This document shows positions 31,706 to 49,472 of a DNA stretch of 64,000 bases, in pieces. Each line of letters opens with the position of its first letter. Position 1 is the first letter of the stretch. Made by a program: the position numbers and the translations under genes. Under the pieces are notes generated by a model, which was not told where the DNA came from, did not search any database, and was given only the letters and a program-made list of their open reading frames with translations. The DNA comes from Myxococcota bacterium (GTDB lineage Bacteria; Myxococcota_A; UBA9160; UBA4427), in assembly GCA_041690055.1 (NCBI GenBank), contig JBDNFB010000068.1, positions 8,114 to 72,113 of the forward strand, given 5' to 3'.

Positions 31706-32941
31706 GTGAACGGGAGTTCGCTCGAAGCGATACGCGAAAAAACATGCTTCTTTGAGGTCCCTACCCGGTACCCAAAGAGGCTGATCACGGACTCTCTAAG
31801 CGACGTTTCATTTCAAGGCCTCTCCGCATCGACCGCACTCGAATGGCTTAGGCTTCAGCAGGTGCACGCCTTGCGACCCGAGGTTGTCGGCCCCGTGTTA
31901 CGCCAGGGGCGGCGTCCCGAAGAACTCGCACGCCCGCAGCCCCGGGAATCCGAGACCGTGGCGCGACTCGAGCGAATCGGGGCCACACTCGTCCCTCTGA
32001 CACATCCGGCCTATCCAGAAGGCCTTTCGATTCTGGACGACGCGCCTCTCGTGCTTGGGCTGAGGGGCTCGCCGGCGGTGCTTTCGACCGCCTCCATCGG
32101 CATCGTCGGCGCCCGGGCAGCGACCCGCGAAGCACGCTCCAATGCGCGCAGACTCGGTCGCGAACTCGCGAGTGCGGGGCTCACAATCGTCTCAGGACTC
32201 GCACGCGGAATCGACGCAGAGGCGCATCGGGGAGCGCTGGAGGCGGGCGGACGAACGATCGGCGTTCTGGCTTGTGGGATCGATCAGATCTACCCGCCTG
32301 AGCATCGCGACCTGGCGGAGGAGATGACCCGAAACGGTGCGGTCGTCTCGGAGCTTCCGCCGGGTACGCCGCCGCGCAGGAGCCATTTCCCGCTTCGCAA
32401 TCGGATCATCAGCGGTCTTTCGTTGGGGGTGATCGTCGTCGAGGCTCGTCAGCGAAGTGGTTCGCTGATTACCGTACGCCACGCACTCGCGCAGGGGCGG
32501 GAGGTATTTGTCGTACCGGGCGCAGTGTCAGGTCCTTTCGCAGAGGGCACGAATCAACTGCTCCGAGAAGGCGCTCGTCCGGTTCGTAACGCCGAGGATG
32601 TGCTCGAGGACCTCGGCGGATTCACAAAGCTGTGGGGGGAAGGAGCCCGGCTTGCGACGGCAAGGGAGGGGGGTGGCGCGGGTCTGCCGGCAGATCCGCT
32701 TGCTGTGCGGGTGATGACTGCGCTTGAGCCGGGCCCGCTCAGCCGAGAGGCTCTCCTGATCGAATCGGGAGTGGGGGCGGCAGATCTCGGTCGGCTTCTC
32801 TTTGAACTCCACCTCGTGGGCTGCATCGAGGAGGAGCGGGACGGCCGAATCTATTCAAGAAGGCAGGTCCCGGCTGTGCCAGGCGCACGACCGAAGCGAG
32901 GTTCGGCGCGGAGGACGGTGATCTGTGACGAATCCGAATGA
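31706..32941 (+). CDS. dprA: DNA-processing protein DprA (Smf)
   Basis: IVSGLARGIDAEAHRGALEAGGRTIGVLACGIDQIYPPEH and FPLRNRIISGLS are DprA Rossmann blocks. GTG start is uncertain. Confidence 0.85.
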   Translation: MNGSSLEAIREKTCFFEVPTRYPKRLITDSLSDVSFQGLSASTALEWLRLQQVHALRPEVVGPVLRQGRRPEELARPQPRESETVARLERIGATLVPLTHPAYPEGLSILDDAPLVLGLRGSPAVLSTASIGIVGARAATREARSNARRLGRELASAGLTIVSGLARGIDAEAHRGALEAGGRTIGVLACGIDQIYPPEHRDLAEEMTRNGAVVSELPPGTPPRRSHFPLRNRIISGLSLGVIVVEARQRSGSLITVRHALAQGREVFVVPGAVSGPFAEGTNQLLREGARPVRNAEDVLEDLGGFTKLWGEGARLATAREGGGAGLPADPLAVRVMTALEPGPLSREALLIESGVGAADLGRLLFELHLVGCIEEERDGRIYSRRQVPAVPGARPKRGSARRTVICDESE

Positions 32942-33108
32942 GGAGCCGGGAACCTCGGGGCTGGGCTATCCTAGATCTACCGCTTCGGCGGTCCCGTCCC
33001 CCCGTCAGATTGGCTTGGCCGATTGCTCTCCGTGCGTGCTCATATTCGAGGTGCCGGTCGGGCTGGGATGCATCCTGCGACATGACTGGGACGGAAAACG
33101 AGAGGAAG

Positions 33109-34545
33109 ATGGGAGTGGACAAGGGATCAGTGATAGGAGACGGAGAGACGAAGGCGGATGATTTCGTCATCGTCGTCGGTGCTGGATTGGCGGGCTGCGA
33201 AGCGGCCTGGCAATTGGCCCGTCGCGGCGTGCGCGTCGTTCTCTACGACATGAAGCCGGAAAAACTATCCCCCGCGCATCAATCCAAAGATTTCGCCGAA
33301 CTCGTCTGCAGCAATTCCCTGCGCGCGAATACATTGGGAAATGCCGTAGGGCTCCTCAAGGAGGAAATGCGGCGCTTGGGTTCGCTGACTCTTCGCGAAG
33401 CCGACCGGACGGCGGTGCCTGCCGGAAAGGCCCTCGCGGTGGACCGGGATCTCTTTTCGCAGGGGATCACGGAGGCGATCAAGAACGAGCCTTTGATCGA
33501 AATCCGCTACGAGTGCGTCCGGTCGATTCCCGACCATCCGCTCGTCATTCTCGCGACCGGCCCGCTCACGGATACGGACCTTGCATCGGATCTGACTGAG
33601 ACGTTAGGCGAAGAGTCTCTGTATTTTTACGATGCCATCTCGCCAACGGTGTATGCGGATTCGATCGACGAGTCGATCGTTTTTCGCGCTTCGCGCTACG
33701 ACGACGAGAAGGAAGAGAGCGAGCGTGAGGGCGACTATCTGAACGTGCCGCTCTCGAGGGAAGAGTACGAGAATTTTGTCGCGGCCTTGCTTGAGGCGGA
33801 GACCGTGCCGCTCCATGCTTTTGAAGCGGCGATGTACTTCGAGGGCTGTCTGCCGATCGAGGAGATCGCGCGTCGTGGCCCGCGTACTTTGGCCTTTGGG
33901 CCGATGAAACCGGTCGGGCTGACCGATCCGCGGACAGGGCGCTGGCCGCATGCTGTTGTGCAGTTAAGGCGAGAGGATCAGGCGGGCACGCTGTGGAATT
34001 TGGTCGGTTGTCAGACGAAGATGCGCGTCGGAGAACAGAAGCGCGTTATTCGCATGCTACCGGGACTAGGAAAGGCCGTCTTTGCGCGCTTTGGTTCGAT
34101 TCATCGCAACACCTATGTCAACGCGCCCATGCAGCTCGACGCATCGCTTCAGATGAAGGCGCGCCCGGGCGTGTATTTGGCCGGGCAGATGGCGGGCGTC
34201 GAGGGCTACGTCGAGTCGGCGGCGCTGGGGTATTTGGTGGGCGAAACCGTGGCTTGCCGAGTGCTTGGGCTGCCGCATGAAGCCGCGCCGGCGGATACGG
34301 CGCATGGCGCGCTGCTTCGGCATTTGCAGAACGCCGACGCGAAGCATTTCCAGCCGATGAATGTGAACTATGGGCTCTTTCCTCCGCTCACTAAAGAGGA
34401 GTCGACTTTTATCGCGAAGAGCGGGCGTCGGAAGAAGCTGCCGAAGCGGGAGAAGAACGAAAAGCTCGCGGTGCGTGCGCTGGAATCGCTGCGCGGATAT
34501 CGAGAGCGGGCCGATCGCGCGCTTGTGGCGGTGGCCTCCGCATGA
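33109..34545 (+). CDS. trmFO: Methylenetetrahydrofolate--tRNA-(uracil54-C5)-methyltransferase TrmFO (Gid)
   Basis: VVGAGLAGCEAAWQLARRG FAD fold, AELVCSNSLR, GQMAGVEGYVESAALG. ORF track start 32938 is probably too early; ATGs at 33082 and 33109. Confidence 0.9.
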   Translation: MGVDKGSVIGDGETKADDFVIVVGAGLAGCEAAWQLARRGVRVVLYDMKPEKLSPAHQSKDFAELVCSNSLRANTLGNAVGLLKEEMRRLGSLTLREADRTAVPAGKALAVDRDLFSQGITEAIKNEPLIEIRYECVRSIPDHPLVILATGPLTDTDLASDLTETLGEESLYFYDAISPTVYADSIDESIVFRASRYDDEKEESEREGDYLNVPLSREEYENFVAALLEAETVPLHAFEAAMYFEGCLPIEEIARRGPRTLAFGPMKPVGLTDPRTGRWPHAVVQLRREDQAGTLWNLVGCQTKMRVGEQKRVIRMLPGLGKAVFARFGSIHRNTYVNAPMQLDASLQMKARPGVYLAGQMAGVEGYVESAALGYLVGETVACRVLGLPHEAAPADTAHGALLRHLQNADAKHFQPMNVNYGLFPPLTKEESTFIAKSGRRKKLPKREKNEKLAVRALESLRGYRERADRALVAVASA

Positions 34546-35576
34546 CTTGGACTCAGGCCATCGAGGGCTTTGGACGCTATCTCGGCGTCGAACGGGGACT
34601 GTCCCCCAATACGAAGCGGGCCTATGAGTCGGACGTCAGACAGCTGACCGTGCATACCGGTGCGGACGTCGAACCCTCGGAGGTCGATGCCGACCATGTG
34701 CGCGCATGGCTCGCTAGCCTGCATAAGCGTCGCAGTCCGGCAACGATGGGACGGAAGTTGGCCTCTGTGCGTTCGTTCTTTCGTTGGCTGATTCGCGAAG
34801 AGAAGATGAGCGACGATCCAACCGCGGGTCTGCCCATGCCAAAGCTGGAAAAGCGCTTACCGCGACCACTCTCGGTGGACGATTGCGAACAGCTGATTAC
34901 CAATGACCAGAGGCCCGTGCGCCAGTCTGCGCCAGAGGGGGGCGAGCGGGCTACGCGGCACGCTTGGATGCAGCTGCGAGACCGAGCTCTGGTGGAGCTT
35001 CTCTACGGAACCGGAATCCGTATCGGAGAGCTGGTTGCGCTCGATGTGCGGGACCTTGAACTCAGGTCCCAGGAAGTCCGTGTGATGGGCAAGGGCGGGA
35101 AGGAGCGCATCGTGCCGATTCCTGAGAAGGCGCGCGGGGCGCTCGGGGCCTGGCTTGATGTGCGCCGGCATCCGGGTGTACTGAGCGAGCCTCTTTTTAT
35201 TTCTTTGCGGCCGCGAAAAGAGAGCGGTCCGCGGCGACTAGCGGCTCGGGAAGCGCGACGGATTCTTTCGGAACGCGCGGTTCGAGCCGACTTGGATGAG
35301 CATGTCCATCCGCATCGGCTGCGACATAGCTACGCGACCCATTTGCTCGATATGGGCGCCGACCTGCGCGAGATTCAGGAACTGCTCGGTCATGCAAGTC
35401 TTTCGACGACCCAAAAATACACGGCCGTTTCCGTGGAGCATCTGCGAGAAGTCTATGATCAGGCGCATCCTCGGGCCGTAGTGAAGAAGAAGCCTCGCAA
35501 GCGAGCCTCGGCTTCATCTTCGCCCTCCTCTCCGTGTTCTTCGGCGACGGAGCAGGATTCGGAGACGAGCGCGTAA
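34542..35576 (+). CDS. xerC: Tyrosine recombinase XerC/CodV-like with Ser/Pro-rich tail
   Basis: ELLYGTGIRIGELVAL (Arg I), HPHRLRHSYATHLL (HxxR), LGHASLSTTQKYT (catalytic Tyr). Position between trmFO and hslV. Confidence 0.85.
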   Translation: MTWTQAIEGFGRYLGVERGLSPNTKRAYESDVRQLTVHTGADVEPSEVDADHVRAWLASLHKRRSPATMGRKLASVRSFFRWLIREEKMSDDPTAGLPMPKLEKRLPRPLSVDDCEQLITNDQRPVRQSAPEGGERATRHAWMQLRDRALVELLYGTGIRIGELVALDVRDLELRSQEVRVMGKGGKERIVPIPEKARGALGAWLDVRRHPGVLSEPLFISLRPRKESGPRRLAAREARRILSERAVRADLDEHVHPHRLRHSYATHLLDMGADLREIQELLGHASLSTTQKYTAVSVEHLREVYDQAHPRAVVKKKPRKRASASSSPSSPCSSATEQDSETSA

Positions 35577-35648
35577 CGGCGGGCCTAATACATACGGGCT
35601 CGCGTGGTCCGGGTTGTCAGACTGGAAGGATAGGAGCTTGAGAACGAT

Positions 35649-36215
35649 ATGAGCGGTAAGCGAAATGAGCGAGAAGGCCTGGAACGGATTCGTTCGACGA
35701 CGGTTGTGGCGGTTTTACGCGATGGGAAAATCGCGCTGGCGGCGGACGGGCAGGTGACGCTCGGTGAGACGGTCATGAAGCAGAAAGCCGAGAAAGTCCG
35801 GAAAGTTGCCAAGGGCCGGGCGGTGGTGGGCTTCGCGGGCGGGGTCGCGGACGCGATGACTTTGATGGAACGGCTCGAAGGTAAATTTGAGACGCATCCT
35901 GGCAATGTGCGACGGGCGGCTGTGGAACTCGCCCGAGATTGGCGGACGGATCGCGTGCTGCGAAAGCTGGAGGCGATGCTGCTGCTTGGGGATGAGGAGA
36001 CACTTCTGATGGTGTCTGGGAACGGGGACGTGATCGAACCGGATGACGGCGTGGCGGCGATCGGTTCGGGAGGCGCCTTCGCTCTGGCCGCGGCGCGCTC
36101 GCTCGCCCGGCACACGGAGATGAGCGCGGCGGAGATTGCGGAGGCTGCGCTCCAGGTGGCCGCGGAGATCTGCATCTATACCAACGACAATATTACGATG
36201 GAGACCCTGCCTTAG
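35649..36215 (+). CDS. hslV: ATP-dependent protease subunit HslV
   Basis: TTVVAVLRDGKIALAADGQVT with the catalytic Thr; GSGGAFALAAAR. Confidence 0.95.
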   Translation: MSGKRNEREGLERIRSTTVVAVLRDGKIALAADGQVTLGETVMKQKAEKVRKVAKGRAVVGFAGGVADAMTLMERLEGKFETHPGNVRRAAVELARDWRTDRVLRKLEAMLLLGDEETLLMVSGNGDVIEPDDGVAAIGSGGAFALAAARSLARHTEMSAAEIAEAALQVAAEICIYTNDNITMETLP

Positions 36216-36302
36216 AATAGAGGCATGGGGCATGGGCGCGCGGAGCATAGGCGCAAGCGACTCCAATCGAGAGATCACTCGCGGAAGGCAGGCGGAAAAG
36301 GC

Positions 36303-37655
36303 GTGACCAACGAACATACTTTCACTCCACGCGAAATCGTTTCGGAACTCGATCGCTATGTCGTGGGGCAGCGAGACGCGAAGCGCGCTGTGGCCGTAGC
36401 TCTGCGCAATCGCTGGCGACGGCGACAAGTGCCGGAGGAACTCCGCGACGAAATCGCGCCGAAGAACATCATCATGATCGGTGCCACGGGCGTGGGAAAG
36501 ACCGAGATCGCGCGCCGACTCGCGAAGCTTGCGCAAGCGCCGTTTATCAAAGTGGAAGCTTCGAAGTTCACTGAGGTGGGCTACGTCGGTCGGGACGTGG
36601 AGTCGATCATTCGGGATCTGACAGAGCTTGCGATCCAGCTGGTCACCGAAGAAGAAAAAAGAGAAGTGCGCGCAAAAGCGGAGGCCAATGCAGAGGAGCG
36701 GCTGCTGGATGCGCTGCTCCCGCCCTCCGACATGGGCAGCGCTTCCTCCTCACCCGCCTCTTCGGAGAGCAGTGAGACGCGCGAGAAGTTTCGCAAGCTG
36801 CTGCGTTTGGGAGAGCTGGATGAACGGGAGATCGAGCTTGAACTCAGCGACGAAGGAGGCGCACCCTCGCTTTCGATCATGACGCCCCAGGGCGCCGAAG
36901 ATATGGGGATGCAGTTCAAGGATCTGCTTTCCGGGATGATGCCGAAGCAGACCAAGGCCCGTCGGATGAAGGTCGCAGATGCGCGAGAGGCGCTGATCGC
37001 GGAAGAGGCTCTGGCCCTGGTGGATTCGGAAAAAGTGCGCGAACTCGCGGTCCGGCGAGTTGAGGAGACGGGAATCGTCTTCATTGACGAGATCGACAAG
37101 GTCGCTGTGGGCAGCGGAGGGCGGCAGGGTCCGGATGTCTCCCGCGAAGGAGTGCAGCGTGACCTGCTTCCGATCGTGGAAGGGTCCACAGTGCAGACCA
37201 AGCATGGCCCGGTTTCGACCGACCATATTCTATTCGTTGCCGCCGGCGCTTTTCATCTGGCCAAGCCCTCGGATTTGATTCCGGAGCTCCAGGGCCGTTT
37301 CCCGATCCGAGTCGAACTCTCAAGCCTTGGGCGGGAAGAATTGGTACAGATTCTGACCGAACCGACGAATTCGTTAGTTCGTCAGTATACTGCGCTGCTC
37401 GCTACGGAAGAGATCGAACTCGATTTCGTGACGTCGGGAATTGAGGCGATCGCTGACGTGGCGGCGACCGTGAATGAGCGGTCGGCGGATATCGGCGCGC
37501 GTCGACTGCATACCGTGATGGAGCGGCTGCTCGAGGAATTATCTTTTAATGCGCCGGATCTGGGACGGCAGCGAGTTGTCGTTGATGAAGCGCTGGTCCA
37601 GGAACGACTGGGCGAGCTGTTGGAAGATCAGGATCTCTCGCAGTTCATCTTGTGA
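36303..37655 (+). CDS. hslU: ATP-dependent protease ATPase subunit HslU
   Basis: [33 protein letters not shown] aligns with the extreme N-terminus of HslU, so the GTG at 36303 is preferred over the ORF-track ATG at 36225. Walker [16 protein letters not shown]. Confidence 0.9.
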
Positions 37656-37686
37656 GTAGCGGGTTGTGAAAAGCGAGGGGGGAAGC

Positions 37687-39213
37687 ATGATTCAGTCGCA
37701 GAGTCGCGTTTTGATTGTCGATGACGAGACGTTTTTTCTGGAGGCCATCGATGAAATTCTGACGGCGGCCGGCCACGATACGATTCGAGCGGCAGACGGT
37801 GAGTCGGCGCTGGCGGCGGTGGCCGATCCGTCGGTGGGTGTCGTCGTTCTGGACGTGCGTCTTCCGGATATGGACGGGATTCAAGTGCTGGCGGCGATTA
37901 GGGAACGACGACCCGAAATTTCCATCATCATGCTTTCCGCGTCGACGGATCAGGAAATCGTGCTGGAGGCGCTTCGCCTCGGGGCTTCGGACTACCTTGC
38001 CAAGCCGCTTCATGATGAGGAATTAGCGCTTGCCGTGGGGCGAGCACTGGACGGCTTCGAGGCCAACGCCGGCAGGAAGCGCCTGCGAGCGCGGATCGAT
38101 CGGCTGGTGGACGGGATGGAGCGGCTTTCCCAACTCGTCCGATTGGCGGCGCCGTACGAGCGGGTCGAGGTTTTGCGACAGGGCATCGTGGATTCGGCGA
38201 GCGTGGTGCTGGAGACTTCGCGCGCTTCGCTCATGCTGGCGGACGCTGATCGCGAATGGCTTTCCGTTGTGGCGACGCGGGGGACCGACGTGAGTCGCGA
38301 GACGATGACCTCCCGCAAAGTAGGGGAGGGCGCTTCGGGCGCGGCTTTCGCCGAAGGCAGCGTGCTTTGCGTACCCGATGTGAACAAGGACGAGCGATTT
38401 GCCGGGCGCGGTGCCGGCGCCTATGCCAGCGAGACCTTCGCCGTTGTCCCGCTGGTCTGTCTCGGGGTGCCGGTGGGCGTGCTGTGTCTGACGGACTGCG
38501 AAGACACTGATTCGCTTTCGGCGGAAGAATCGAATGTGCTCCGATTGCTCGGGATGCAGATCTCGGAATTCTTGGCGGCCGATCCCGAGGTCGAGCGGCT
38601 GCTACTGGCTGCGAGTTCGATGGATGCAGAGGGGCTCGATGCCTCTTCATTCGTCGCGACCGGGAGCAGTGATGGCGATGCCGAGCTCGCACGCCTGGTC
38701 TGCGAGGCGGTTGCGGCTGAGGTGGAGCCGGAACGTGTGCTGAAGCAGGCCCTCTCGGCGGCCGCGACGCAGCTCTCGGCGGCGCCGGTGTCGCTCTTTC
38801 TCTTTTCCCCGGATCGCACGGTGCTCGTGCGCGAGGCCGAAGTGGATGGAGGCGTGATTGGGGACCGGCTTGAGTTGGCTCCGGATCGGGGACTCGTGGG
38901 CCAGGTCTGCCAGAGCGGGCAACTTATTGCGGCGGAGCGGCCCTCAGCCGATGCGCGGTTCGACGCGGCGGTGGACACAGCGAGCGATGGGTTGGAGCGG
39001 CCCTATCTATGCGTGCCGCTCAAATTGCGCGATAAAACGGTCGGAATCCTGCGGATCTTCCTGGAAGAAGGGAAATTTGCCTCTCCTCGGACGGCTGAGA
39101 TCCTTTCCGCATCGTTCTCGGCGGCCGTCCGCAACATCTTTCTGTACCGTAGCTTGCTTCAAAGTATCGAAGAGGTCGCGGATGCGCGGCGGGACGCACG
39201 TTCTAACGTGTGA
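37687..39213 (+). CDS. Response regulator with receiver plus two GAF-like domains
   Basis: Receiver RVLIVDDE...VVVLDVRLPDMDG...KP; then two segments with the GAF-like pattern (..ASLMLAD...L.VVATRG..; ..VSLFLFSP...YLCVPLKLRDKTVGILRIF). No output domain recognised. Confidence 0.75.
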   Translation: MIQSQSRVLIVDDETFFLEAIDEILTAAGHDTIRAADGESALAAVADPSVGVVVLDVRLPDMDGIQVLAAIRERRPEISIIMLSASTDQEIVLEALRLGASDYLAKPLHDEELALAVGRALDGFEANAGRKRLRARIDRLVDGMERLSQLVRLAAPYERVEVLRQGIVDSASVVLETSRASLMLADADREWLSVVATRGTDVSRETMTSRKVGEGASGAAFAEGSVLCVPDVNKDERFAGRGAGAYASETFAVVPLVCLGVPVGVLCLTDCEDTDSLSAEESNVLRLLGMQISEFLAADPEVERLLLAASSMDAEGLDASSFVATGSSDGDAELARLVCEAVAAEVEPERVLKQALSAAATQLSAAPVSLFLFSPDRTVLVREAEVDGGVIGDRLELAPDRGLVGQVCQSGQLIAAERPSADARFDAAVDTASDGLERPYLCVPLKLRDKTVGILRIFLEEGKFASPRTAEILSASFSAAVRNIFLYRSLLQSIEEVADARRDARSNV

Positions 39214-39258
39214 GTGTCAGGACCAGTTTGATTTGAGCATCGATACGGAACGGATACG

Positions 39259-40113
39259 ATGAAAGAGCTCGTCGACAAAGCGCGGGTCTTGATGGAATCG
39301 CTGCCCTATATGCAGCGCCTGATGGGGAAGACCGTCGTGATCAAGTATGGCGGTCACGCGATGACGGACGAGGCGCTTCAGGCGTCCTTCGCAGCCGACG
39401 TTGTCTTGCTTAAGCATATCGGGGTGCGGCCCGTGATTGTGCACGGCGGCGGCCCTCAGATCGAAGCGACGCTTGCGAAGATGGGGCGCCAGTCGACCTT
39501 TATCGAGGGGCGGCGCGTCACGGACGACGAGACCATGGAAGTGGTCGAGATGGTTCTGGGTGGCAAGCTCAACCGCGAAATCGTCGAACTGGTTCAGCAG
39601 GCGGGCGGTCGTGCCGTGGGGATTACCGGAAGCGACGGCGGTCTCATGCAGGTGAAGCGCAAGCTGATCGACGGGCAGGATCTTGGTCGCGTTGGGTCGG
39701 TGACGCGCGTTGATCCGAGTGTGTTGCGCGCTTCGATGGACGCCGGTTTTATTCCCGTGATCGCGCCGATTGGTGTCGACGAAGCGGGCGTCAGCCATAA
39801 CGTCAACGCGGACGAAGCGGCCGGTGCGATTGCCGCGTCGCTGGTGGCCGAGAAGTTGATACTGCTGACCGATGTGGACGGGGTGCTCGACGCAAATAAG
39901 AAATTGGTGAGTCAGCTGACCGTCGAAGAGTGCCGCGGACTGATTCGTGACGGCACGATCGAGGGCGGCATGATCCCGAAGATGGAATGTTGTATGCAGG
40001 CTCTTTCCGGTGGTGTTTCGAAGACGCATGTCGTGGATGGTCGTGTCCAGCATGCTGTGCTGCTCGAGATTTTCTCGGACGATGCGGGTGTGGGGACGCT
40101 GCTCGTTCCCTGA
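39259..40113 (+). CDS. argB: Acetylglutamate kinase
   Basis: VVIKYGGHAM, VIVHGGGPQI, NVNADEAAGAIA. Confidence 0.9.
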   Translation: MKELVDKARVLMESLPYMQRLMGKTVVIKYGGHAMTDEALQASFAADVVLLKHIGVRPVIVHGGGPQIEATLAKMGRQSTFIEGRRVTDDETMEVVEMVLGGKLNREIVELVQQAGGRAVGITGSDGGLMQVKRKLIDGQDLGRVGSVTRVDPSVLRASMDAGFIPVIAPIGVDEAGVSHNVNADEAAGAIAASLVAEKLILLTDVDGVLDANKKLVSQLTVEECRGLIRDGTIEGGMIPKMECCMQALSGGVSKTHVVDGRVQHAVLLEIFSDDAGVGTLLVP

Positions 40114-40208
40114 ACCGAAGGCGATGGAAATGAACGAACGCGCATGCTGCGGGGCAGAAGCGCGGCGTGCGGCTCGGTGAACCGCCGAGTGCAATCAACG
40201 GAGAAAGA

Positions 40209-41129
40209 ATGCCGAAGGATTTCGTGACTGTGGCGGATTGGGAAGCCGACGAGCTCTGGGCGATCACAGATCGAGCCGCGGTGCTGCGCGAGAATCATCG
40301 CTCGGGAAACCGCGAGCGCACGCTTGAAGGCATGACGCTCGCGATGTATTTCGAGAAGCCTTCGCTGCGCACTCACGTCACTTTTGAGGCGGGAATGGCG
40401 CAGTTAGGCGGACAGGCGCTTTTGATTCGGCCCGAGCAGGTGGGCTTCGGAACGCGGGAAACTTCGGGGGATGTGGCGAACGTTTTGTCTCGGGTTGTCG
40501 ATTGTTTGATGGCCCGCACGTTCTCGCATGAGCTGGTGGAGAAACTGGCGCGTGAAGCAACGATTCCCGTCATCAACGGATTGACTGATTTCCTTCATCC
40601 CTGTCAGGCGATGGCGGACTTGGCGACCATCGCAAGTGTGATGAATCCGCGCGAGGCCAAGATTGCATATGTGGGCGACGGCAATAACGTCGCCAACTCG
40701 CTGATCCTAATTGCGGCTGTCCTTGGACTGAAGCTTCGGGTCGCGACGCCAAATTCGCATCCGCCGGCCTCTCGAATCATGTCACAAGCGCGGGGGCTCG
40801 CGGCGGAGAGTGGCGCGGAGATCATGCTCACGGACGATCCCGTCGAAGCCGTGCGCGATGTCGATTTCGTGTATACCGATACCTGGACGAGCATGGGGCA
40901 AGAGGAAGAGGCCGAACAGCGCCGTCGCCTTTTTGCGCCGTATCAGGTGAATACAGAGCTGCTCTCCCATTCGGCCGATGCCTACATCCTGCATTGTCTC
41001 CCCGCGCACCGAGGAGAAGAGGTCACGGCGGAAGTACTCGATGGCCCGAAGAGCCTGATCTTCGATCAGGCCGAAAATCGCCTCCACGCCCAGAACGCGA
41101 TCCTCGAAAAGCTCTTGTTGAACCGCTGA
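40209..41129 (+). CDS. argF: Ornithine carbamoyltransferase
   Basis: FEKPSLRTHVTFE carbamoyl-phosphate site, HPCQAMADL, DTWTSMGQE, HCLPAHRGEEV. ATG at 40209 preferred over ORF-track start 40167. Confidence 0.9.
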   Translation: MPKDFVTVADWEADELWAITDRAAVLRENHRSGNRERTLEGMTLAMYFEKPSLRTHVTFEAGMAQLGGQALLIRPEQVGFGTRETSGDVANVLSRVVDCLMARTFSHELVEKLAREATIPVINGLTDFLHPCQAMADLATIASVMNPREAKIAYVGDGNNVANSLILIAAVLGLKLRVATPNSHPPASRIMSQARGLAAESGAEIMLTDDPVEAVRDVDFVYTDTWTSMGQEEEAEQRRRLFAPYQVNTELLSHSADAYILHCLPAHRGEEVTAEVLDGPKSLIFDQAENRLHAQNAILEKLLLNR

Positions 41130-41376
41130 AGCCGTTGTTGGGGGCTGAAGCTCCTATTTGAGGGGTTGACGAGGCTCCCTACTCTCCCTCGTTTTACCCG
41201 AGGGGATGTCCGGTCCGGGAAAATCAGCGTTGATGCAGGAAAGTCAGTGCTGCGCGTATTCCACACCCAAAGTTTGCACTCTGTTGGCCGATGAGAATCC
41301 GGTGGGCCTACGCAGATCGCGTGCGCCCCAACGGTGAGGTGCAGTGGGGTTGGGCGTTGACTCGGTCGACAATCCA

Positions 41377-42747
41377 ATGAATCGCGTAGTCGCTTTGGCG
41401 GCGAATTGCGACGCGACGCAGTTAAAACTGACTGCGGCGGAGGGCTATCTGCTGTCGCGAATCGACGGCAAGACACCGCTTCGCCTGCTGCGCGAGATCG
41501 GTGGAATTCCCCCGTCCAACGTCGATGAATGTGTCGAGCTATGGCTGGACGACGGCGTTATAGAAGTGGTCGCAGGAAAGCCGGAGGCTAAGCCCAAGGG
41601 CGCTTCGGCTTCGGCAGCCACGACCGCGACAGCTGCGACTGCTGCCACCGCGGCGGACAAGATGGATGCGGGTGAATCAGATGGTCAGCCCTTCCCGCCG
41701 CCGATCGACGAATCGATGCTCGACGAACGACTCGATATTAGTTTGGATATCCAACGACGGATTCTTGAATTCGAGGCGGGCCTTGGACGGCCCTATCACA
41801 CGCTGCTGAACATCGATGTGGGCTCTCAGCCCAAGACTGTCAAGCGCGCCTATTTCAAGCTCTCCAAAGAATTTCATCCCGATCGCTTTTTCCGAAAGCA
41901 GATCGGCGATTACGGTGCACGCCTCAATCGCATCTTCAAGAAGATCCTGGAAGCGCACGAAATGCTCTCGGATCCCGAGTTGCGCGGGGTTGAAAATCAG
42001 GCCGCCGCTTCGGATACGTTCGTGGAACCGCCGCAGCAGCCGACGAGTAGAGCCGCGCTTTCCGGTCCGGCTAAGACCGCGCCCGATAAAAACGCGCCGC
42101 CCGAGGCCACTCCCGCCGCCGCCCCGAAGCGACCACTCACCAAGCTGGAACGCCTGCGTCAGCGCATGCCTTTTAAGATCAATCACGCGGCGATCGCCGA
42201 ACGTCGAGCCCGCGCGGCCGAGATCTTCAAGGCTGCCGAGTATTCGCAGCGCGCGGGTCGCCTGAAGGAAGCAGAAGCCAACATTCGTATCGCGATTACC
42301 TTCGATCCGAGCCGCTCGGAGTTCAAGGAGGCGCTCGGTAGCTTGCGCATCGAGGCCGCCGGCGCGCGCGCAGCGAAGCTGATGGCTGCCTCAAGCGACC
42401 GCATGCCCGATAGCGAGCTGCGTGAGGTGCTGACGCTGCTTGAAGACGTGCTGCCTTACCGGCCACATGATCCGGACCTGAATGAACGCGCCGCACGCGT
42501 CTGTCTGAAGCTTGGGAAGCTGGATGATGCCGCCGAGTACGCAGAGACCTTGATTGCGCGCACACCGGAAGTGGCGACGTACCACTCGATGCTCGGCAAG
42601 ATCGAGCGTGAGCGCGGAAATAGCGATGAAGCCATGAGCGCCTTCGAAACGGCGCTCAAGTACGACGAAGAAGATGTAGACGCACGGAGGGCCATTGCCT
42701 CCATGCGAATCGGAGCGCGAGATGCCGCGCGAGGGGGGCGGTCATGA
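41377..42747 (+). CDS. J-domain protein with N-terminal wHTH-like module and C-terminal TPR region
   Basis: J-domain [33 protein letters not shown] with intact HPD; N-terminal [18 protein letters not shown] module; C-terminal TPR-like helices ([18 protein letters not shown].., [18 protein letters not shown]). Confidence 0.75.
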
Positions 42748-44315
42748 GCCGTGTGATCGGAATCGATCTGGGAACGACTAATTCTTGCGTGGCGGTGGTC
42801 GAGAACGGGCAGCCGACCGTGATTCCGAATTCGGGGGGTTACAAGACAACTCCCTCGATGTTCGGGATTTCGCAAGATGGCAAGCGACTAGTGGGACACT
42901 TGGCGAAGCGCCAGGCCATTACCAATGCGCGCAACACGGTCTTCGCTTCGAAGCGTTTGATCGGTCGCCGCTTCGACGATCCGGAAGTGCAGAAGTCGAT
43001 TGATCTCTGTCCTTACGAGATTGTCAGAGGTCCCAACGAAGATCCGCGCATCAAGGTCGGTGGCAAAACGTTCACCTGCCCCGAGATCGCGGGCATCATC
43101 CTTCGCGAGATGAAGCGCGTCGCCGAAGAATATCTGAGCGAGACGGTGCAGGAAGCGGTCATTACGGTGCCCGCCTACTTCAACGATACTCAGCGCCAGT
43201 GCACGAAGGACGCGGGTAAGATTGCCGGCCTCGAAGTGCTGCGCATCATCAACGAACCGACCGCCGCGGCGCTTGCGTACGGCATGAGCCGGCAGGGCGA
43301 CGAGAAGATCGCGGTCTATGACCTGGGTGGTGGTACTTTCGATATCTCGATCCTCGAAATGTCGGACGGTGTCGTCGAAGTCCTCGCGACTTCGGGCAAT
43401 ACCTTCCTCGGCGGTGAGGACTTCGATCGACGTATCGTCCAGCATCTCGTCGAGTGGTTCGAAGAGAACGAGGGTATGGATCTGCGCAGCGATACAATGG
43501 CGCTGCAGCGACTGAAGGACGCGTCGGAGAAGGCTAAATGCGATCTCTCCATGCGCGATGTGGTCGAGATCAATCTGCCCTTTATTGCCAGCGACTCGGA
43601 AGGGCCGCGACATCTCAATTACGAGCTGACGCGCGAGACCCTCGAAGGTCTCGTACATGACGTCGTCGAAGGCACACTGAAGAGTGTCGAGCAGTGCTGT
43701 GTCGACGCCGGCGTCACGCCTGCGGACATCGATCAGGTCGTCCTAGTCGGTGGTCAGACCCGCATGCCGCTGGTTCAGCGCCGCGTGACGGAGCATTTCG
43801 GAAAGCGCCCGCATAAGGGCGTGAACCCGGACGAGGTCGTGGGTCTGGGCGCAGCGGTCCAGGCCGCAGCACTCCTTGACAGTGACAATGACATGCTGCT
43901 GCTCGACGTGACGCCGCTGTCTCTCGGTATCGGGACCTACGGTGGCCACTTTGCTCGCTTGATCGATCGCAATACGACAGTGCCGGTCAGTAAGGGGCAT
44001 ATCTTCACGACGACGCGCGACGATCAGTCGGCGGTGAAGATTCGCGTTCTTCAAGGTGAGAGCGATATGGCCGCGGAGAACGATCTCCTTGGTGAGTTCG
44101 TTCTTTCGGGCATCCGCCCCGCGCCTAAAGGTGAGCCGGAGATCGAGGTCAGCTTCGACATCGATGCCAACGGCATCGTGAGTGTCTCGGCGCGCGATCT
44201 GGCCACGGGCAAGGAGCAGTCGATCACGGTCAGCTCGACGGGCACACTGTCGGATGACGAGATTGATGAGATCATCAACGAGCACGACCTCTACGAAGTT
44301 CAGTTGAAGGACTAA
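42744..44315 (+). CDS. Hsp70 family protein lacking the C-terminal helical lid
   Basis: [50 protein letters not shown]. It ends at 523 aa shortly after the beta-sandwich ([15 protein letters not shown]...). The ATG overlaps the J-protein stop (ATGA). Confidence 0.85.
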
Positions 44316-44350
44316 CTCGTAAACTATGGGTAAGGGATAGGGCGGGCGCC

Positions 44351-44923
44351 ATGGCGGATACGAACGAAGCTCGGGTTTCGGGATTGCTCCAAATGGGGCT
44401 GGAATCCTATGGAACCGGTGACGTGGCCCGAGCTTTCTTGCTCTGGCGCGAAGCGCTTGAGCTCGACCCGGGGAACGAAGAAGCGCTCGACTATATGCGG
44501 GATGCGGATCGTCGTTCGAAGCCGCGCGGTGGTCTGGAAGCGAGTGCGCCCGGAACGGTTCTCGATGATGTGCGTCGATTGCTGCACGACGAGAATGCCG
44601 ATGAGGCCTACGAGCTGATGACGAGCGTGGGCACGAACGGCGATTTCGAGAGTGAAGCGATGGTCGAACTCCTTCGTGCCACGCTCTACGCGGGATACCG
44701 CGCAGAGTTGGGCGATTTGGGGCAGGTTCCTCGCATCGTAGGAGAGGCCGCGGCGAGTCTGCAAAGTCGCAACCTGCCTCCGAGCGCGGGGTTCTTACTC
44801 TCCATGGTGGACGGCATGACGCCGCTTTCTGACCTGATCTCGCTCTCGGGCATGGATCGGTTCGAAGCATTGCGTTCGGTCTGCCGAATGCGCGAGGCGC
44901 GAATTCTGGAGTGGGACGTATGA
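44351..44923 (+). CDS. Small TPR-like protein with C-terminal wHTH-like module
   Basis: VARAFLLWREALELDPGNEEALDYM is a TPR-type repeat. The C-terminal AGFLLSMVDGMTPLSDL matches the N-terminal module of the J-protein. Preferred over the long antisense ORF 43743-44870. Confidence 0.6.
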   Translation: MADTNEARVSGLLQMGLESYGTGDVARAFLLWREALELDPGNEEALDYMRDADRRSKPRGGLEASAPGTVLDDVRRLLHDENADEAYELMTSVGTNGDFESEAMVELLRATLYAGYRAELGDLGQVPRIVGEAAASLQSRNLPPSAGFLLSMVDGMTPLSDLISLSGMDRFEALRSVCRMREARILEWDV

Positions 44924-45867
44924 GCGCGGCAGAAGAAAATTCTCTCCTCGGTTATCTGAACACGCCGATTATGGTGGGCGATCCGGACGGCAATATCGTG
45001 TACGCGAATCAGTCCTTTCGAGAGCGCTTTGGCTCTTCGGTTGAGGATCCGGTTGGGATGCCATTGGCAGCGGTATTCGGAGGTGGTGCACGCGAAGTGG
45101 TCTTGAAAGCGACCGCTGAAGTGCTCCAGCGCGGCCAGGCGGCTCGACTTCAGCTTCGCGAGGGCGGCTACGGCTACACGGGACTCGCTTCGCCTATCGA
45201 GGCGGAGGACGACCGCGTCGGCGTCGTCATGGTGATGCTCGAGGAGCAGTCGAACGAAGAGTATTTGACGGCGCTCACCGACGAGATCTCCGATCCGATC
45301 GCGGACGCACTGCGCAGTTTGCAGTCGCTTTCGGGCTTGATGAATGCGGACGCCACCCAAGACCAGCAGGCGCTGATCGATCGCAGCCTCCGCTCCCTGG
45401 AGTCGGCGAAAAAGTGGATGACCGAGCTACAGGTCGCAGTGCGCGGTGGCAAGCCGCAGCAGGGACGCTTTGATGTGTCGGCCTCGATTCAGCGCGTTGC
45501 CGAGCGTGCGCAGAAGGATGTGGCGGGAGCCGATCTCGCAGTGCTGATGCCGCCGAACCTGCCGCGGGTGGCCGGCAGGTCCGTTGTCTTCGAGCGCGTG
45601 CTGACCCAGTTGCTTCGAGAACGAATGCAGGAGACAGCGAAGGGCAAGCCGATCACGCTGCTTGCGCGTGCCCTTGGTGGCGAACAATCACGCGGTGTCC
45701 TCGTGTCCGTGGTTGATATCCCGGATGCAGATCGCCGCACGAGCAGTGGGCATCCGCCCGAAGCGGTCCAGCACGGGATGACCTCGATCGGCGGGGAGAG
45801 CATCTGCGTCGAAGACTCGATCGCAGGTCGCGTGACCTCATTGCGGCTCGCGATCGCGAGCAATTGA
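44920..45867 (+). CDS. PAS-domain protein with degenerate histidine-kinase-like core (pseudokinase?)
   Basis: PAS-like LNTPIMVGDPDGNIVYANQSFRERFG; DHp-like EISDPIADALRSL (Asp where the H-box His would be); LPRVAGRSVVFERVLTQLLRERMQ resembles the N-box region but lacks Asn. The ATG at 44920 overlaps the upstream stop (ATGA). Confidence 0.55.
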   Translation: MSAAEENSLLGYLNTPIMVGDPDGNIVYANQSFRERFGSSVEDPVGMPLAAVFGGGAREVVLKATAEVLQRGQAARLQLREGGYGYTGLASPIEAEDDRVGVVMVMLEEQSNEEYLTALTDEISDPIADALRSLQSLSGLMNADATQDQQALIDRSLRSLESAKKWMTELQVAVRGGKPQQGRFDVSASIQRVAERAQKDVAGADLAVLMPPNLPRVAGRSVVFERVLTQLLRERMQETAKGKPITLLARALGGEQSRGVLVSVVDIPDADRRTSSGHPPEAVQHGMTSIGGESICVEDSIAGRVTSLRLAIASN

Positions 45868-45917
45868 TCGCGAGGCGGATTCGCCGGATGGGTCTCCGCC
45901 CCGTATCGTCTGGTCAT

Positions 45918-47435
45918 ATGAACGCTTCGCCCGCCGCGTGCCGAATGGCTCTTCTGGTTCTTCTTGGACTGGTCCTTCTCGCTTGCCCGCAAGACGAGCT
46001 CGCAGACGCGGTTCTCAAGCCAGCGGCATGGCCCAAGGGTCGACTGGTCAGTGTCGCCGTCGTTGGTGAAGGCACGATCCTGATCGCCGCGGAGCACGGC
46101 AAAATCCATCGCAGCGATAATGCCGGCAAGACCTGGAAACGCGCGCGCGGTCCCGCGGTCAACTCGCTTTCGGCGCTGGCCATGGTCGACGCGGAGGTTG
46201 GCTGGGCGGTCGGAGACGGCGTGATCCTCAAAACCGACAAAGGGGGTCTCGCCTGGCGACGGCAGCGCCTCCCGCGCCGCGCCGACGAAGTTCAGCTCAT
46301 GGGCGTTGCCGCGCTCGACCGCGATCGTGCGATTGCGGTTGGAGCCGACGGCTTGCGCTTTTACACCCACGACGGCGGCGCGGTTTGGAAAGACGCTTCT
46401 GGGCCGCTGGTGGCTCCGTTAAACGAAGGGGCTGGCCCCGCGCCGCTCCGCGCAGTGCAGGGGGATTTGTACGATGACCTGCATGACGATCTATATGACG
46501 TCGCGTGCGAAGCCGCCAAGCTGAACCGCTGCTGGGCTGTTGGGGCTGGGCTTTACCTGAGTCGCGATGCGGGCGTCACCTGGGAGGCCGTTCCGATCTC
46601 GCATTTTGATTCGACCGAGCCGATTGAGTTTGCCTTTAAAGGCGTCGAAATCGCCGAAGAGGACGCCGCGCGGGTTCGGGCACTCGCGACAAAGTGGCGT
46701 TATGTCTCCCCGCTCTCGTGGCGAATTGAAGTGTCTCTGCTGGCTTCTGAAGTCGAGCGGATCAGTCGGCAACGGGATCCTGCCGCGTTGCTTGAAATCG
46801 TCGAAGCGCGCGCACAGGAAGCGCGCAGTCTGCTGGAAGACGTGGGCATCGATGCGACGCGAATCGAAGTGATTGGTGCGCCGCCTTGGAACTACGAAGA
46901 CTCCTTGGATGAAGACCCTGAACTTCTGGAACGTTATTTGGCTGAGCGCACGCAGGCCGTGGGCGGAGTGCGGATCCATCTCGAGGATGAGGCGCGCCTG
47001 CATGCCTTGGCTCTGTTCGGCGACGGTCATGCCGTCGCGGTGGGCGAGGCCGGAAAGGTCGCGCGTCGCGTGCAGACCGGCGGGGGCGCTTTCGCCTGGA
47101 AGGTCGAGGGGCGGAAGGGGACTCAGGATCTCTTTGCTGTGGCTATTGGGCCTGGTGACAGGCCTGTCATGGTGGGGGCACAAGGCGGATTTTGGGTGGC
47201 GGAGGCGAGCGACGACCTCGACGCGCCCGGTCGTTTCACACAGCGGGATGTGGGCGCGGGGCCCGCGGCCTTCGGTGCGATTCGGGATGTGGCCTTCGGC
47301 GAAGGTCCCGGCGCGGGGCCCGACCGGCTGGGTGTGGCGGTGGGAGAGCTGGGGCGAATCTGGGTCGCTGAAGGCATTCCCCCCGAGTGGAAGGTACGGA
47401 TTTCGCCTGCAGAAGGCACGCAACCGCAGTCGTAA
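45918..47435 (+). CDS. Lipoprotein with Asp-box (BNR) beta-propeller repeats, Ycf48-like
   Basis: Lipobox LVLLAC. Repeated S/T-x-D-x-G-x-(T/A)-W motifs: RSDNAGKTWK, KTDKGGLAWR, THDGGAVWK, SRDAGVTWE. Alternative starts at 45864 (TTG) and 45888. Confidence 0.65.
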   Translation: MNASPAACRMALLVLLGLVLLACPQDELADAVLKPAAWPKGRLVSVAVVGEGTILIAAEHGKIHRSDNAGKTWKRARGPAVNSLSALAMVDAEVGWAVGDGVILKTDKGGLAWRRQRLPRRADEVQLMGVAALDRDRAIAVGADGLRFYTHDGGAVWKDASGPLVAPLNEGAGPAPLRAVQGDLYDDLHDDLYDVACEAAKLNRCWAVGAGLYLSRDAGVTWEAVPISHFDSTEPIEFAFKGVEIAEEDAARVRALATKWRYVSPLSWRIEVSLLASEVERISRQRDPAALLEIVEARAQEARSLLEDVGIDATRIEVIGAPPWNYEDSLDEDPELLERYLAERTQAVGGVRIHLEDEARLHALALFGDGHAVAVGEAGKVARRVQTGGGAFAWKVEGRKGTQDLFAVAIGPGDRPVMVGAQGGFWVAEASDDLDAPGRFTQRDVGAGPAAFGAIRDVAFGEGPGAGPDRLGVAVGELGRIWVAEGIPPEWKVRISPAEGTQPQS

Positions 47436-47557
47436 CTGATTGATCCACATCGACAGTGCGCCTCAAGGCAGTCACTCTTTATTCCGATAGAATCGTGAGG
47501 TTCGCGACTTGCTGCGGCCCCAGTAGCCGTGTGTCCCCTACGGGGAGGAGTTCATCG

Positions 47558-49084
47558 ATGTCGGATCAGGATCTGAGCGCACCGATCCCAGTCCTGTTAG
47601 TGGGCGACGGGGCGCGCGCGACCGAGATGGCCCTGACGGCCAGCTTGGCGGCGTCCGGTCATTCCGCGCGCTTTTCCTGCGCGGCGTTTGGCGGCGTTGA
47701 TTCCGCTGCGGATGCGTCTTCCGGTGCTCAGCAAATTGTGCTGATCGCACTCGGATCCGATTCCGAGGAAATTCTGACCGATCCCGTTTGGCTTGCTTGG
47801 AGTCGACCGGGCGTATCCATGGCTCGAATTGCCATGTCGGACGAGACGCCGTCTGCCGATCTGGGTGTGCCCGTGCCTAATGCCCATGGAGCCGTCTCTG
47901 GAACCGCTTATGGAACCGCCGAAGCCGGCGACCAGATCATTTACCGCTTGCCGAGTTCGCAGTCTGATGCGCTGCCGATGGCGACGATTGTTGTGGCGCA
48001 GCTTCTGGATGCGGCGCGTAACGAAAGGGCCCTCCGCGATCAGCTTGATACCGAACGCGCGTGTGAACCTCTGGCTTCTTGTCTTGAGCCCGGCAAACTC
48101 TATCCGATGGCGCTCGAACTTCTTCTTGAGCGGCTTCATTGTCAGAGGGGCATCGCTTTTTTCTCGCCGAGTCCCGCCGGACGCGAAGCGGGTGTTGCGG
48201 CGCGCGGCTTTCCCGAGGAGGTGCGGGACCGGCTCTCTCGCATGCTGATCGACGAAAAATCCCTTGAATCGACCATGGGGCAGGGTGATGTGGGTGTCGT
48301 GCCGTGGGGCCCACTGCATCATGCGCTGGGTCAGCTGGGCTTGGATTCGCCCGGCCCTCTGCTCTCGGTCCCGCTTCGCGGGGAGGATCGTGAGTCGGGC
48401 CACGTCTGGGTACTTTCGGAAGGGCGACGCTTTGACAGCGAGGACCTCGCGAGCGCGACGACGATCGCGCGTCGAGTGAATGCGGCGCTGTCGACGGCTG
48501 AGCAGTACCATAACGCTAAGGAACGCGCGTTCATTGATGATGTGACGGGCGTCTACAACGCGCGCTATTTACTCGCGACCGCGGACAACGAGATTAAGCG
48601 CGCCGATCGCTACGGGAATCCGCTGTCCGTGCTCTTCCTCGATCTCGATCGCTTCAAGCAGGTCAACGATATCCACGGCCACCTGGTCGGATCCGATACG
48701 CTGCGCACGCTTTCGACCCTGCTCGGGCAGTCAGTGCGTCAGGTAGACACGCTTGCTCGCTACGGCGGGGACGAATTCACGGTGCTCCTCGTCGACACGC
48801 CGCATGACGCCGCACTCCGGATCGCGGAGCGCATTCGAAGCCGGGTTGAGGCGCATGTCTTCGAAGCGGGCCGCGAGGGCAGCTTTCGGCTCTCGATTTC
48901 GATCGGGGTGGCCAGCTGTCCCGAGCACGGCGGCTCCCGCGAGCCTCTGCTCGACGCGGCGGACAAGGCGATGTATCGGGCCAAGAGCCAGGGGCGGAAC
49001 CGGGTCTGTTCGGCGAACGATCTCGGCGAGGATCCCGGGAATGCGCCGAGTGAAGGCGCTTCCGGCGTAAGCGGCGGTCGCTGA
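47558..49084 (+). CDS. Diguanylate cyclase (GGDEF) with uncharacterised N-terminal region
   Basis: DDVTGVYNARYL, LFLDLDRFKQVNDIHGH, RYGGDEFTVLL; RxxD I-site (RQVD) five residues upstream of GGDEF. The ATG at 47558 is preceded by ggggaggag. Confidence 0.85.
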   Translation: MSDQDLSAPIPVLLVGDGARATEMALTASLAASGHSARFSCAAFGGVDSAADASSGAQQIVLIALGSDSEEILTDPVWLAWSRPGVSMARIAMSDETPSADLGVPVPNAHGAVSGTAYGTAEAGDQIIYRLPSSQSDALPMATIVVAQLLDAARNERALRDQLDTERACEPLASCLEPGKLYPMALELLLERLHCQRGIAFFSPSPAGREAGVAARGFPEEVRDRLSRMLIDEKSLESTMGQGDVGVVPWGPLHHALGQLGLDSPGPLLSVPLRGEDRESGHVWVLSEGRRFDSEDLASATTIARRVNAALSTAEQYHNAKERAFIDDVTGVYNARYLLATADNEIKRADRYGNPLSVLFLDLDRFKQVNDIHGHLVGSDTLRTLSTLLGQSVRQVDTLARYGGDEFTVLLVDTPHDAALRIAERIRSRVEAHVFEAGREGSFRLSISIGVASCPEHGGSREPLLDAADKAMYRAKSQGRNRVCSANDLGEDPGNAPSEGASGVSGGR

Positions 49085-49344: not shown

Positions 49345-49392
49345 CGGCTTTATCTGTCACCTTATCAGCCACTTTGTCTGCCACTTTGTCTG
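49345..49392. repeat. Four tandem 12-bp units (last two identical: ccactttgtctg) upstream of aspS
   Basis: cggctttatctg / tcaccttatcag / ccactttgtctg / ccactttgtctg, immediately followed by the palindrome ctgccaataggcag (49390-49403) and TTGACA (49405-49410). Confidence 0.6.
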
Positions 49393-49472
49393 CCAATAGG
49401 CAGTTTGACAACACGATGTACGGACCGCGGATTGCGCGGGCCCTTACGCAACGGCCTCGCCCAGGAGCTTGG

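Follow-up and report, generated by a model that had tools for sequence, protein, structure and literature searches.

A putative four-gene J-protein/lidless Hsp70 unit with a TPR partner and a PAS pseudo-kinase in Myxococcota

We analysed a 64,000-nucleotide stretch of Myxococcota DNA (GenBank assembly GCA_041690055.1, contig JBDNFB010000068.1, positions 8,114 to 72,113 of the forward strand), here called the window, which has a G+C content of 61% and carries six plus-strand genes of interest within positions 41377-49084. They encode a J-domain protein, an Hsp70 that lacks the alpha-helical lid, a 190-amino-acid protein (p190), a PAS protein with a degenerate kinase-like region, a lipoprotein and a diguanylate cyclase. 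An earlier note on this DNA had taken the six for a single module. Comparison of gene neighbourhoods across about 55 related loci splits the block, and the explanation that we favour, and hold to be reasonably probable, is that three units lie side by side: the chaperone genes, the lipoprotein gene, and a cyclase gene with a promoter-like element of its own. The comparison supports an operon-like, apparently translationally coupled unit of four genes, J-Hsp70-p190-PAS, built on a trio (J, Hsp70 and a p190-family gene) that is found across the phylum. The locus is a variant of the specialised J-protein/Hsp70 systems, which are already known as a kind. The six genes are as follows.

41377..42747, plus strand: J protein, class C, with an N-terminal winged-helix-like domain of about 55 amino acids, a J-domain with HPD, and C-terminal TPR
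42744..44315, plus strand: DnaK-type Hsp70 of 523 amino acids without an alpha-helical lid (Pfam HSP70 4.6e-214)
44351..44923, plus strand: p190, 190 amino acids, with helical hairpins of TPR type, joined by a short disordered linker to a winged-helix-like domain at the C-terminus
44920..45867, plus strand: PAS plus degenerate histidine-kinase-like protein (Pfam PAS_4 5.2e-9)
45918..47435, plus strand: BNR/Ycf48-like lipoprotein, signal peptide with LLAC lipobox (Pfam PSII_BNR 2.6e-8, BNR 2.7e-7)
47558..49084, plus strand: diguanylate cyclase with a degenerate receiver-like N-terminus, a GAF-like middle and a GGDEF domain

Results

Gene order in related genomes

The gene-level description in the earlier note held up. 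Pfam gives DnaJ plus TPR, HSP70, PAS, BNR/PSII_BNR, and GGDEF plus a weak GAF match, in agreement with the domain labels proposed, and the HPD motif of the J-domain, the missing Hsp70 lid, the kinase-like protein without its histidine, the lipobox/BNR protein and the GGDEF domain with an I-site were all confirmed. The same is true of the junctions. On re-reading the sequence, the J stop and the Hsp70 start overlap as ATGA at 42744-42747, a gap of exactly 35 nucleotides (nt) separates the Hsp70 stop from the ATG of the p190 gene at 44351, and the p190 stop overlaps the PAS start as ATGA at exactly 44920-44923. The TGA that ends the PAS gene (45865-45867) shares letters with a TTG at 45864, with the lipoprotein ATG at 45918 lying 50 nt further on, and exactly 122 nt precede the cyclase ATG at 47558. 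The J-gene start originally chosen, ATG 41377, is the start position kept in relatives; an alternative GTG start lies at 41344. That all six genes share one strand is true but not distinctive, since about 30 successive genes (15.4-54.4 kb) are on the plus strand.

For the comparison we used 52 loci found in a scan with the 190-amino-acid protein, one genome per GTDB species, and searched 14 window proteins against them by tblastn; about 55 related loci, designated here by L numbers, were compared overall. The earlier note read the six genes as one operon, a chaperone-gated signalling module for cyclic di-GMP (c-di-GMP) and exopolysaccharide (EPS). The tight junctions agree with this, as does a scan for terminators and sigma-70 promoters over 39-51.5 kb, which found none in the spacers; similar upstream elements also precede the J and cyclase genes. 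The close clade, by which we mean uncultured, mostly marine Myxococcota whose p190 is at least 59% identical to that of the window, includes about 16 relatives with the six genes in the same order. This conservation nevertheless carries little weight, because the whole stretch from hslU to sucD is equally syntenic in that clade.

More divergent loci break the block apart. In three lineages with p190 proteins 38-43% identical to that of the window, the order runs xerC-hslV-hslU-(REC-GAF)-argB-argF, then J-Hsp70-p190-PAS with an Hsp70 of 523-530 amino acids, and continues with argG, an ABC1 kinase gene on the opposite strand, a DUF1329-BNR pair and a REC-GGDEF gene. L056 has an additional minus-strand AMP-binding gene before the cyclase, and the BNR gene follows a DUF1329/LolA-like gene in L026, L055, L056 and a JGI contig. 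No match to argG, ABC1 or DUF1329 was found anywhere in the window. Because these genes part PAS from BNR and GGDEF in the deeper relatives, the contiguity of all six is secondary and came about when the genes in between were lost or moved. Further evidence also speaks against one operon: the lipoprotein gene is missing from at least nine close relatives, about a third of them (L006, L008, L010-L014, L019 and L020), the cyclase has its own promoter-like element, and the block holds no EPS gene and no stk-like partner, with stkB and stkC lacking a counterpart (PMC4319316). We consider a six-gene operon of this kind very unlikely.

What persists across these distances is the four-gene unit, which is kept where p190 and PAS proteins are 29-43% identical, with an Hsp70 of the length given above, a p190 of 179-194 and a PAS protein of 315-321 amino acids. 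The ATGA overlap of J and Hsp70 occurs in nearly all close relatives having both genes. The start-stop overlap of p190 and PAS, as ATGA or GTGA, was seen in 25 of the 28 loci, and these include lineages whose PAS proteins are 29-35% identical. One part of the original proposal, a dedicated J/Hsp70 pair tied to non-chaperone partners, is borne out by this conserved and coupled unit.

The trio is ancient in Myxococcota, the PAS gene joins it only in the marine order containing the window, and the p190-family gene lies directly 3' of the Hsp70 gene wherever it is found. Polyangiaceae encode a J protein of 515 amino acids, a lidded Hsp70 of 607 and a third protein of 292, followed by an M1 peptidase. 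Soil Myxococcales show xerC-hslV-hslU-J-Hsp70-third gene in L042 and hslU-J-Hsp70-third gene in L045 and L051, and the trio is also present in L057. In the cultured Anaeromyxobacter paludicola the order is xerC-hslV-hslU-argD-argF-J-Hsp70-TPR, the last three proteins being 320, 539 and 181 amino acids long and their genes joined by 4-nt overlaps, with unrelated opposite-strand genes after the trio. Polyangiaceae are the only lineage examined in which the trio does not lie downstream of xerC-hslV-hslU.

The trio is also set among arginine-biosynthesis genes, with argB or argD and argF upstream, argG downstream in deeper relatives and argB about 4 kb downstream in Polyangiaceae, and a trmFO/gid-xerC-hslV-hslU cluster precedes it in most Myxococcota examined (window 32938-41129; L042, L054-L056). 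Function and inherited order are both possible reasons for this setting.

The J protein and the lidless Hsp70

Pfam recognises DnaJ (1.1e-10, residues 151-214) and TPR_16 (9e-13) in the J protein. It has the features of class C: FHPD is present, TPR are the only other domains found, and there is no Gly/Phe region or zinc finger.

The Hsp70 can be aligned to E. coli DnaK over residues 1-519 only, which comprise the nucleotide-binding domain (NBD), the linker and the beta part of the substrate-binding domain (SBD), with no helical lid. Its interdomain linker is conserved, SBD-beta aligns through DnaK residue ~519, and the chain stops just past the start of helix A, giving 523 amino acids versus 638 in E. 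coli DnaK. The nucleotide-binding signatures, said earlier to be complete, are indeed kept: alignment to mortalin and DnaK places the phosphate-1, phosphate-2 and adenosine motifs, including VGGQTRMP. The protein is 523 amino acids long in all close relatives, 524-545 in deeper ones and 607-625 in Polyangiaceae and other Myxococcales. Comparison of these sequences indicates that the lid was lost in the order containing the window and that the loss is fixed in the clade. The chain ends in a conserved acidic tail, LSDxEIDEIIxEHDLYEVxLK. Among the NCBIfam DnaK models, the protein scores 787.6 with PRK00290, above the cut-off of 648, and 758.6 with TIGR02350, below the cut-off of 822.55. We also considered HscA and rejected it because the NCBIfam scores are under the cut-offs (546.8 versus 620 and 540.9 versus 708.55).

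The 190-residue partner protein

The 240 homologues of p190 have never been annotated beyond 'hypothetical' or 'TPR'. A p190 profile matches about 1,200 clusters (50% identity) at E <= 1e-30; some giant generic TPR proteins are among the top matches, and many matches are proteins of 190-1,100 amino acids with about 130 conserved residues at the C-terminus. The C-terminal domain contains an invariant motif, AGFLLSMxDG.

The AlphaFold2 model of p190 (pLDDT 83) shows TPR-like hairpins followed by a small domain of four helices and two strands. Foldseek with the whole model returned generic TPR matches only (E > 0.07), so the C-terminal domain was modelled separately. The best structural matches of this domain were winged-helix domains of SEA/GATOR1 subunits (TMq 0.74, probability 1.0, E 0.015); winged helices of the MarR/Lrp type came next, at E about 1. 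The label 'TPR-wHTH' given to this protein is reasonable in view of the models and the winged-helix matches, but it is only weakly supported. A comparison within the locus shows that the N-terminal ~55 residues of the J protein are homologous to the C-terminal domain of p190 (hhalign probability 97.9%, E 3.7e-13).

Could p190 be a co-chaperone, a nucleotide-exchange factor or lid substitute that replaces GrpE for this Hsp70? The block contains no GrpE gene, p190 is all-helical with TPR-like hairpins, and the conserved acidic tail of the lidless Hsp70 could be a docking site for TPR. The local absence of GrpE is normal, however, because the 15 Hsp70s of M. xanthus share two GrpE proteins (PMC11019930), and the p190 family also accompanies lidded, full-length Hsp70s in Polyangiaceae and other Myxococcales. 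In the lidded lineages the linkers are proline-rich and reach about 450 amino acids, unlike known exchange factors, and there was no GrpE, BAG or HspBP1 among the structural matches of p190. Such a co-chaperone role seems very improbable to us.

In soil Myxococcales the third protein is 443-635 amino acids long, with proline-rich linkers. The longest is encoded in L045, from a soil Myxococcales metagenome-assembled genome (8327-10234, 635 amino acids), and has about seven T(Q/M)VFGAP-like motifs in its linker, among them repeated TQVFGAP. These could be short linear binding sites for Hsp70 or for a partner.

The PAS protein, the lipoprotein and the cyclase

In a profile search, residues ~109-258 of the PAS protein align weakly (E 1.9e-4 to 4e-3) but consistently with sensor kinases, DivL, RetS and KinB over their DHp/CA regions. 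The phospho-acceptor position, aligned to the His of AHEIRTP, holds Asp or Glu; the window protein reads TDEISDP, with Asp. Neither Pfam nor NCBIfam finds HATPase_c in it, and by inspection the N-box Asn and DxGxG are absent, leaving the N and G1 boxes unrecognisable. On these sequence features the name pseudo-kinase appears justified. In deeper lineages the H-box region (FHREMQEP) still contains a His, one residue off the canonical position; the window clade has none.

An orphan response regulator encoded at 37666-39213, between hslU and argB, consists of a canonical receiver and two GAF domains without an output domain. Its gene is kept at that place throughout the order (L030, L055, L056 and the JGI contig), and the protein is a possible partner for the PAS pseudo-kinase.

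The lipoprotein begins with MALLVLLGLVLLAC, in which a signal peptide and lipobox Cys are recognisable by inspection. Where present it is 31-56% identical in relatives, as against 90-98% for Hsp70 (tblastn). Its sequence and distribution indicate a dispensable envelope neighbour outside the chaperone unit.

The cyclase has a strong GGDEF domain (Pfam 4.7e-43, TIGR00254 2.7e-50), with both the active site and an RxxD I-site five residues upstream intact: RQVDTLARYGGDEF. Pfam gives no REC match for the window protein, which retains a receiver remnant (VLLVGD...ILTDP...) and has lost the conserved Lys (YRLPS versus YLIKP in canonical orthologues). The orthologues of L026, L030 and L055 carry a canonical REC (Pfam E ~1e-24 to 1e-25). 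A canonical receiver goes together with the nearby His in the PAS protein, and a degenerate one with its absence; this joint decay would fit a past in which the PAS protein and the cyclase were a cognate pair.

Promoter-like elements

41266..41292, plus strand: promoter-like element of the J gene, CCCAAA-N16-CCGAT, a variant of CTCARR-N16-CCGAT, 84 nt before ATG 41377
47462..47488, plus strand: promoter-like element of the cyclase gene, CTCAAG-N16-CCGAT, 70 nt before the ATG

The first element is a conserved island in the divergent argF-J spacer, where relatives read CTCARR-N16-CCGAT. The second is kept in all relatives, whether the preceding gene is that of the lipoprotein or that of the PAS protein, and also in L026 and L055, where the cyclase gene sits 6-8 kb downstream of the PAS gene. 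When about 0.5 Mb of related loci was searched on both strands for CTCARR-N16-CCGA[TA], all 34 matches fell upstream of J or the cyclase. Outside the order, in Polyangiaceae and Anaeromyxobacter, the J gene has no such motif upstream. The similarity of the two elements, which is modest, is suggestive of co-regulation of the J gene and the cyclase. A near-copy, CTCAAG-N15-CCGAT, is present at 62070-62095, 10 nt upstream of an open reading frame (ORF) at 62105-63223 that has no Pfam match.

Relation to known systems

Regulatory Hsp70s are known in Myxococcus xanthus, and the earlier note had drawn an analogy with StkA and SglK. The two are Hsp70s outside the housekeeping set and have signalling phenotypes, and StkA is short, as is the window Hsp70 (PMC4319316). 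At the level of the locus the analogy fails. The stk locus comprises stkA, encoding a 540-amino-acid regulatory Hsp70 that is not heat-induced, stkB (SCP2-like, 141 amino acids) and stkC (89 amino acids) (PMC4319316), and sglK is in an operon with a GrpE homologue, GrpS, immediately upstream (PMC11019930). In the window stkB, stkC and the upstream GrpE lack counterparts: argF and J are upstream of the Hsp70 gene, p190 and PAS are downstream, and Pfam finds no SCP2 match among the downstream genes. We rejected an identity with stk or sglK on account of the different partner genes and of a best J-domain match, MXAN_3015, that is not a gene of the stk locus.

With the 13 M. xanthus J-domain sequences from the supplement of PMC11019930, MXAN_3015 is the best match for the window J protein (39% identity, 63 bits; next best 50) and for every other J-family member tested, including that of Anaeromyxobacter (49-54% identity). 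The likely M. xanthus counterpart, judged from these comparisons, is thus MXAN_3015/MXAN_3016 and not stk or sglK. A 72-amino-acid query with the MXAN_3015 J-domain gave no candidate in an index of 5.8 billion proteins, where an unindexed protein or a miss by the word filter is possible. A literature search found no described J/TPR-Hsp70 operon in Myxococcota and no account of the trio as a unit.

MXAN_3015 is a class-C J-protein of 453 amino acids whose gene adjoins MXAN_3016 (PMC8265645, PMC11019930). MXAN_3016 is a 65.5-kDa Hsp70 with NBD and SBD and without a C-terminal tail; it is non-essential and not heat-induced (PMC8265645, PMC11019930), and an E. coli dnaK mutant is not rescued by it (PMC8265645). 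Strains deleted for MXAN_3016 sporulate less and are less resistant to oxidative stress, with no change in motility or predation (PMC8265645). MXAN_3015 was recovered in co-purification with DnaK1, the housekeeping Hsp70 (PMC11019930). MXAN_3016 differs from the window Hsp70 in keeping the lid, and the window locus has a PAS partner whereas none is reported for MXAN_3015/3016.

These data bear on a second alternative, that the trio serves as a second-line chaperone, an accessory to the HslVU locus for stress or proteostasis in general, with PAS and GGDEF as unrelated neighbours by inherited order. The position of the trio behind xerC-hslV-hslU, the co-purification of MXAN_3015 with DnaK1 and the lowered oxidative-stress resistance on deletion of MXAN_3016 are all in line with it. 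On the other hand, MXAN_3016 shows neither heat induction nor rescue of the dnaK mutant; the third gene is as conserved as J and shares a domain with it, which points to a specific partner; and the p190/PAS overlap persists at 29-35% protein identity, which passive synteny explains poorly. We judge a general proteostasis role to be possible but unlikely.

Several other systems offer partial parallels. DivL and RetS have a DHp/CA fold without normal autophosphorylation and are among the best profile matches of the PAS protein, though weak ones (E about 1e-3); unlike them, the window protein is a cytoplasmic one that carries one PAS domain, has Asp in place of the His and lacks N and G1 boxes that could be recognised. 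The cyclase resembles PleD/WspR-type enzymes in its intact GGDEF domain and RxxD I-site, and its deeper orthologues are REC-GAF-GGDEF or REC-GGDEF proteins, but in the window clade the receiver is degenerate beyond Pfam detection. HOP, Tom70/71, Sgt2 and PP5 are eukaryotic TPR co-chaperones that hold Hsp70 by its C-terminal EEVD; p190 has weak Foldseek matches to their TPR domains, and the window Hsp70 has a conserved acidic tail; unlike the case of the EEVD-clamp co-chaperones, the TPR matches of p190 are generic, the tail reads DLYEVxLK instead of EEVD, and docking is only proposed.

Neighbouring genes

The plus-strand order upstream of the six genes is dprA, trmFO/gid, xerC, hslV, hslU (36225-37655), the receiver plus 2xGAF gene, argB and argF, and downstream it is aspS, mdh, sucC and sucD. 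Two sigma-54-dependent response regulators (REC plus Sigma54_activat plus HTH_8) are encoded further upstream in the same co-directional array, at 9461-10909 and 15454-16902. The 5' part of the aspS ORF contains four copies of a 12-nt unit, CTTTATCTGCCA, at 49348-49395, translated as LSATLSATLSA in an N-terminal extension. This repeat extension suggests that the true aspS start is probably further downstream, in which case the cyclase-aspS spacer would exceed 215 nt. An Rfam scan of the window found no RNA family, and none of the six proteins matches any anti-phage defence model in PADLOC.

Discussion

A specialised J-protein and Hsp70 may be encoded together with the one protein on which they act, as HscB and HscA are with IscU in Fe-S cluster assembly. 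By analogy with HscB/HscA/IscU, we suggest that the trio could form an Hsp70 machine dedicated to one client. The likeness would lie in the logic of a dedicated client only: isc genes are absent, and the partner protein combines TPR with a winged helix. Because one winged-helix-like domain is common to J and p190, the two proteins probably bind the same partner or each other through it. The HPD of the J protein would trigger ATP hydrolysis in a fast-cycling lidless Hsp70, and the TPR parts may dock its acidic C-terminal tail. The PAS pseudo-kinase, which would be co-translated, is the likeliest object to be assembled, held or released by the chaperone cycle. More tentatively, the pseudo-kinase might act on the cyclase by contact and not by phosphotransfer, the chaperone cycle thereby tuning c-di-GMP.

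In its full form the proposal has the lidless machine connected with a phosphorylation-dead PAS/cyclase pair, through translational coupling and a promoter element that they share, the chaperone cycle then setting c-di-GMP; we regard so complete a picture as unlikely, if conceivable. The gating of c-di-GMP and EPS by a chaperone, as first envisaged, survives in part. A tie to c-di-GMP is possible, as the upstream motif and the joint decay suggest; a tie to EPS is unsupported, and the block holds no EPS gene.

Several points weigh against our reading. When a full-width position weight matrix was trained on the cyclase sites, the J sites were not its top-ranking matches, and we have for that reason lowered the claim of a shared element to suggestive. 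A core match as good as this has a probability of 0.001-0.025 of arising by chance in a 200-nt spacer, and the likeness was spotted post hoc. The joint decay of His and receiver amounts to one evolutionary event, and deeper lineages with a canonical receiver already have a degenerate CA domain. Orthology with MXAN_3015/3016 is drawn from a comparison of J-domains of 64-72 amino acids together with synteny in other genera. Sequence alone fits the third protein as client, adaptor or substitute for nucleotide exchange, and the constant hslVU neighbourhood of the trio could reflect a general role in proteostasis.

The block also holds a lesson for annotation, in that the tight contiguity of six genes in one clade can stem from recent gene loss and need not signify an operon. 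To our knowledge, almost none of the extra Hsp70 paralogues, found above all in myxobacteria, has a known client. For this question of what specialised bacterial Hsp70s act on, the trio offers a candidate partner and a shared docking domain, and the window adds a natural lidless Hsp70 variant that appears to be coupled to a pseudo-kinase. MXAN_3015/3016 is a likely handle on the trio in a genetic model organism.

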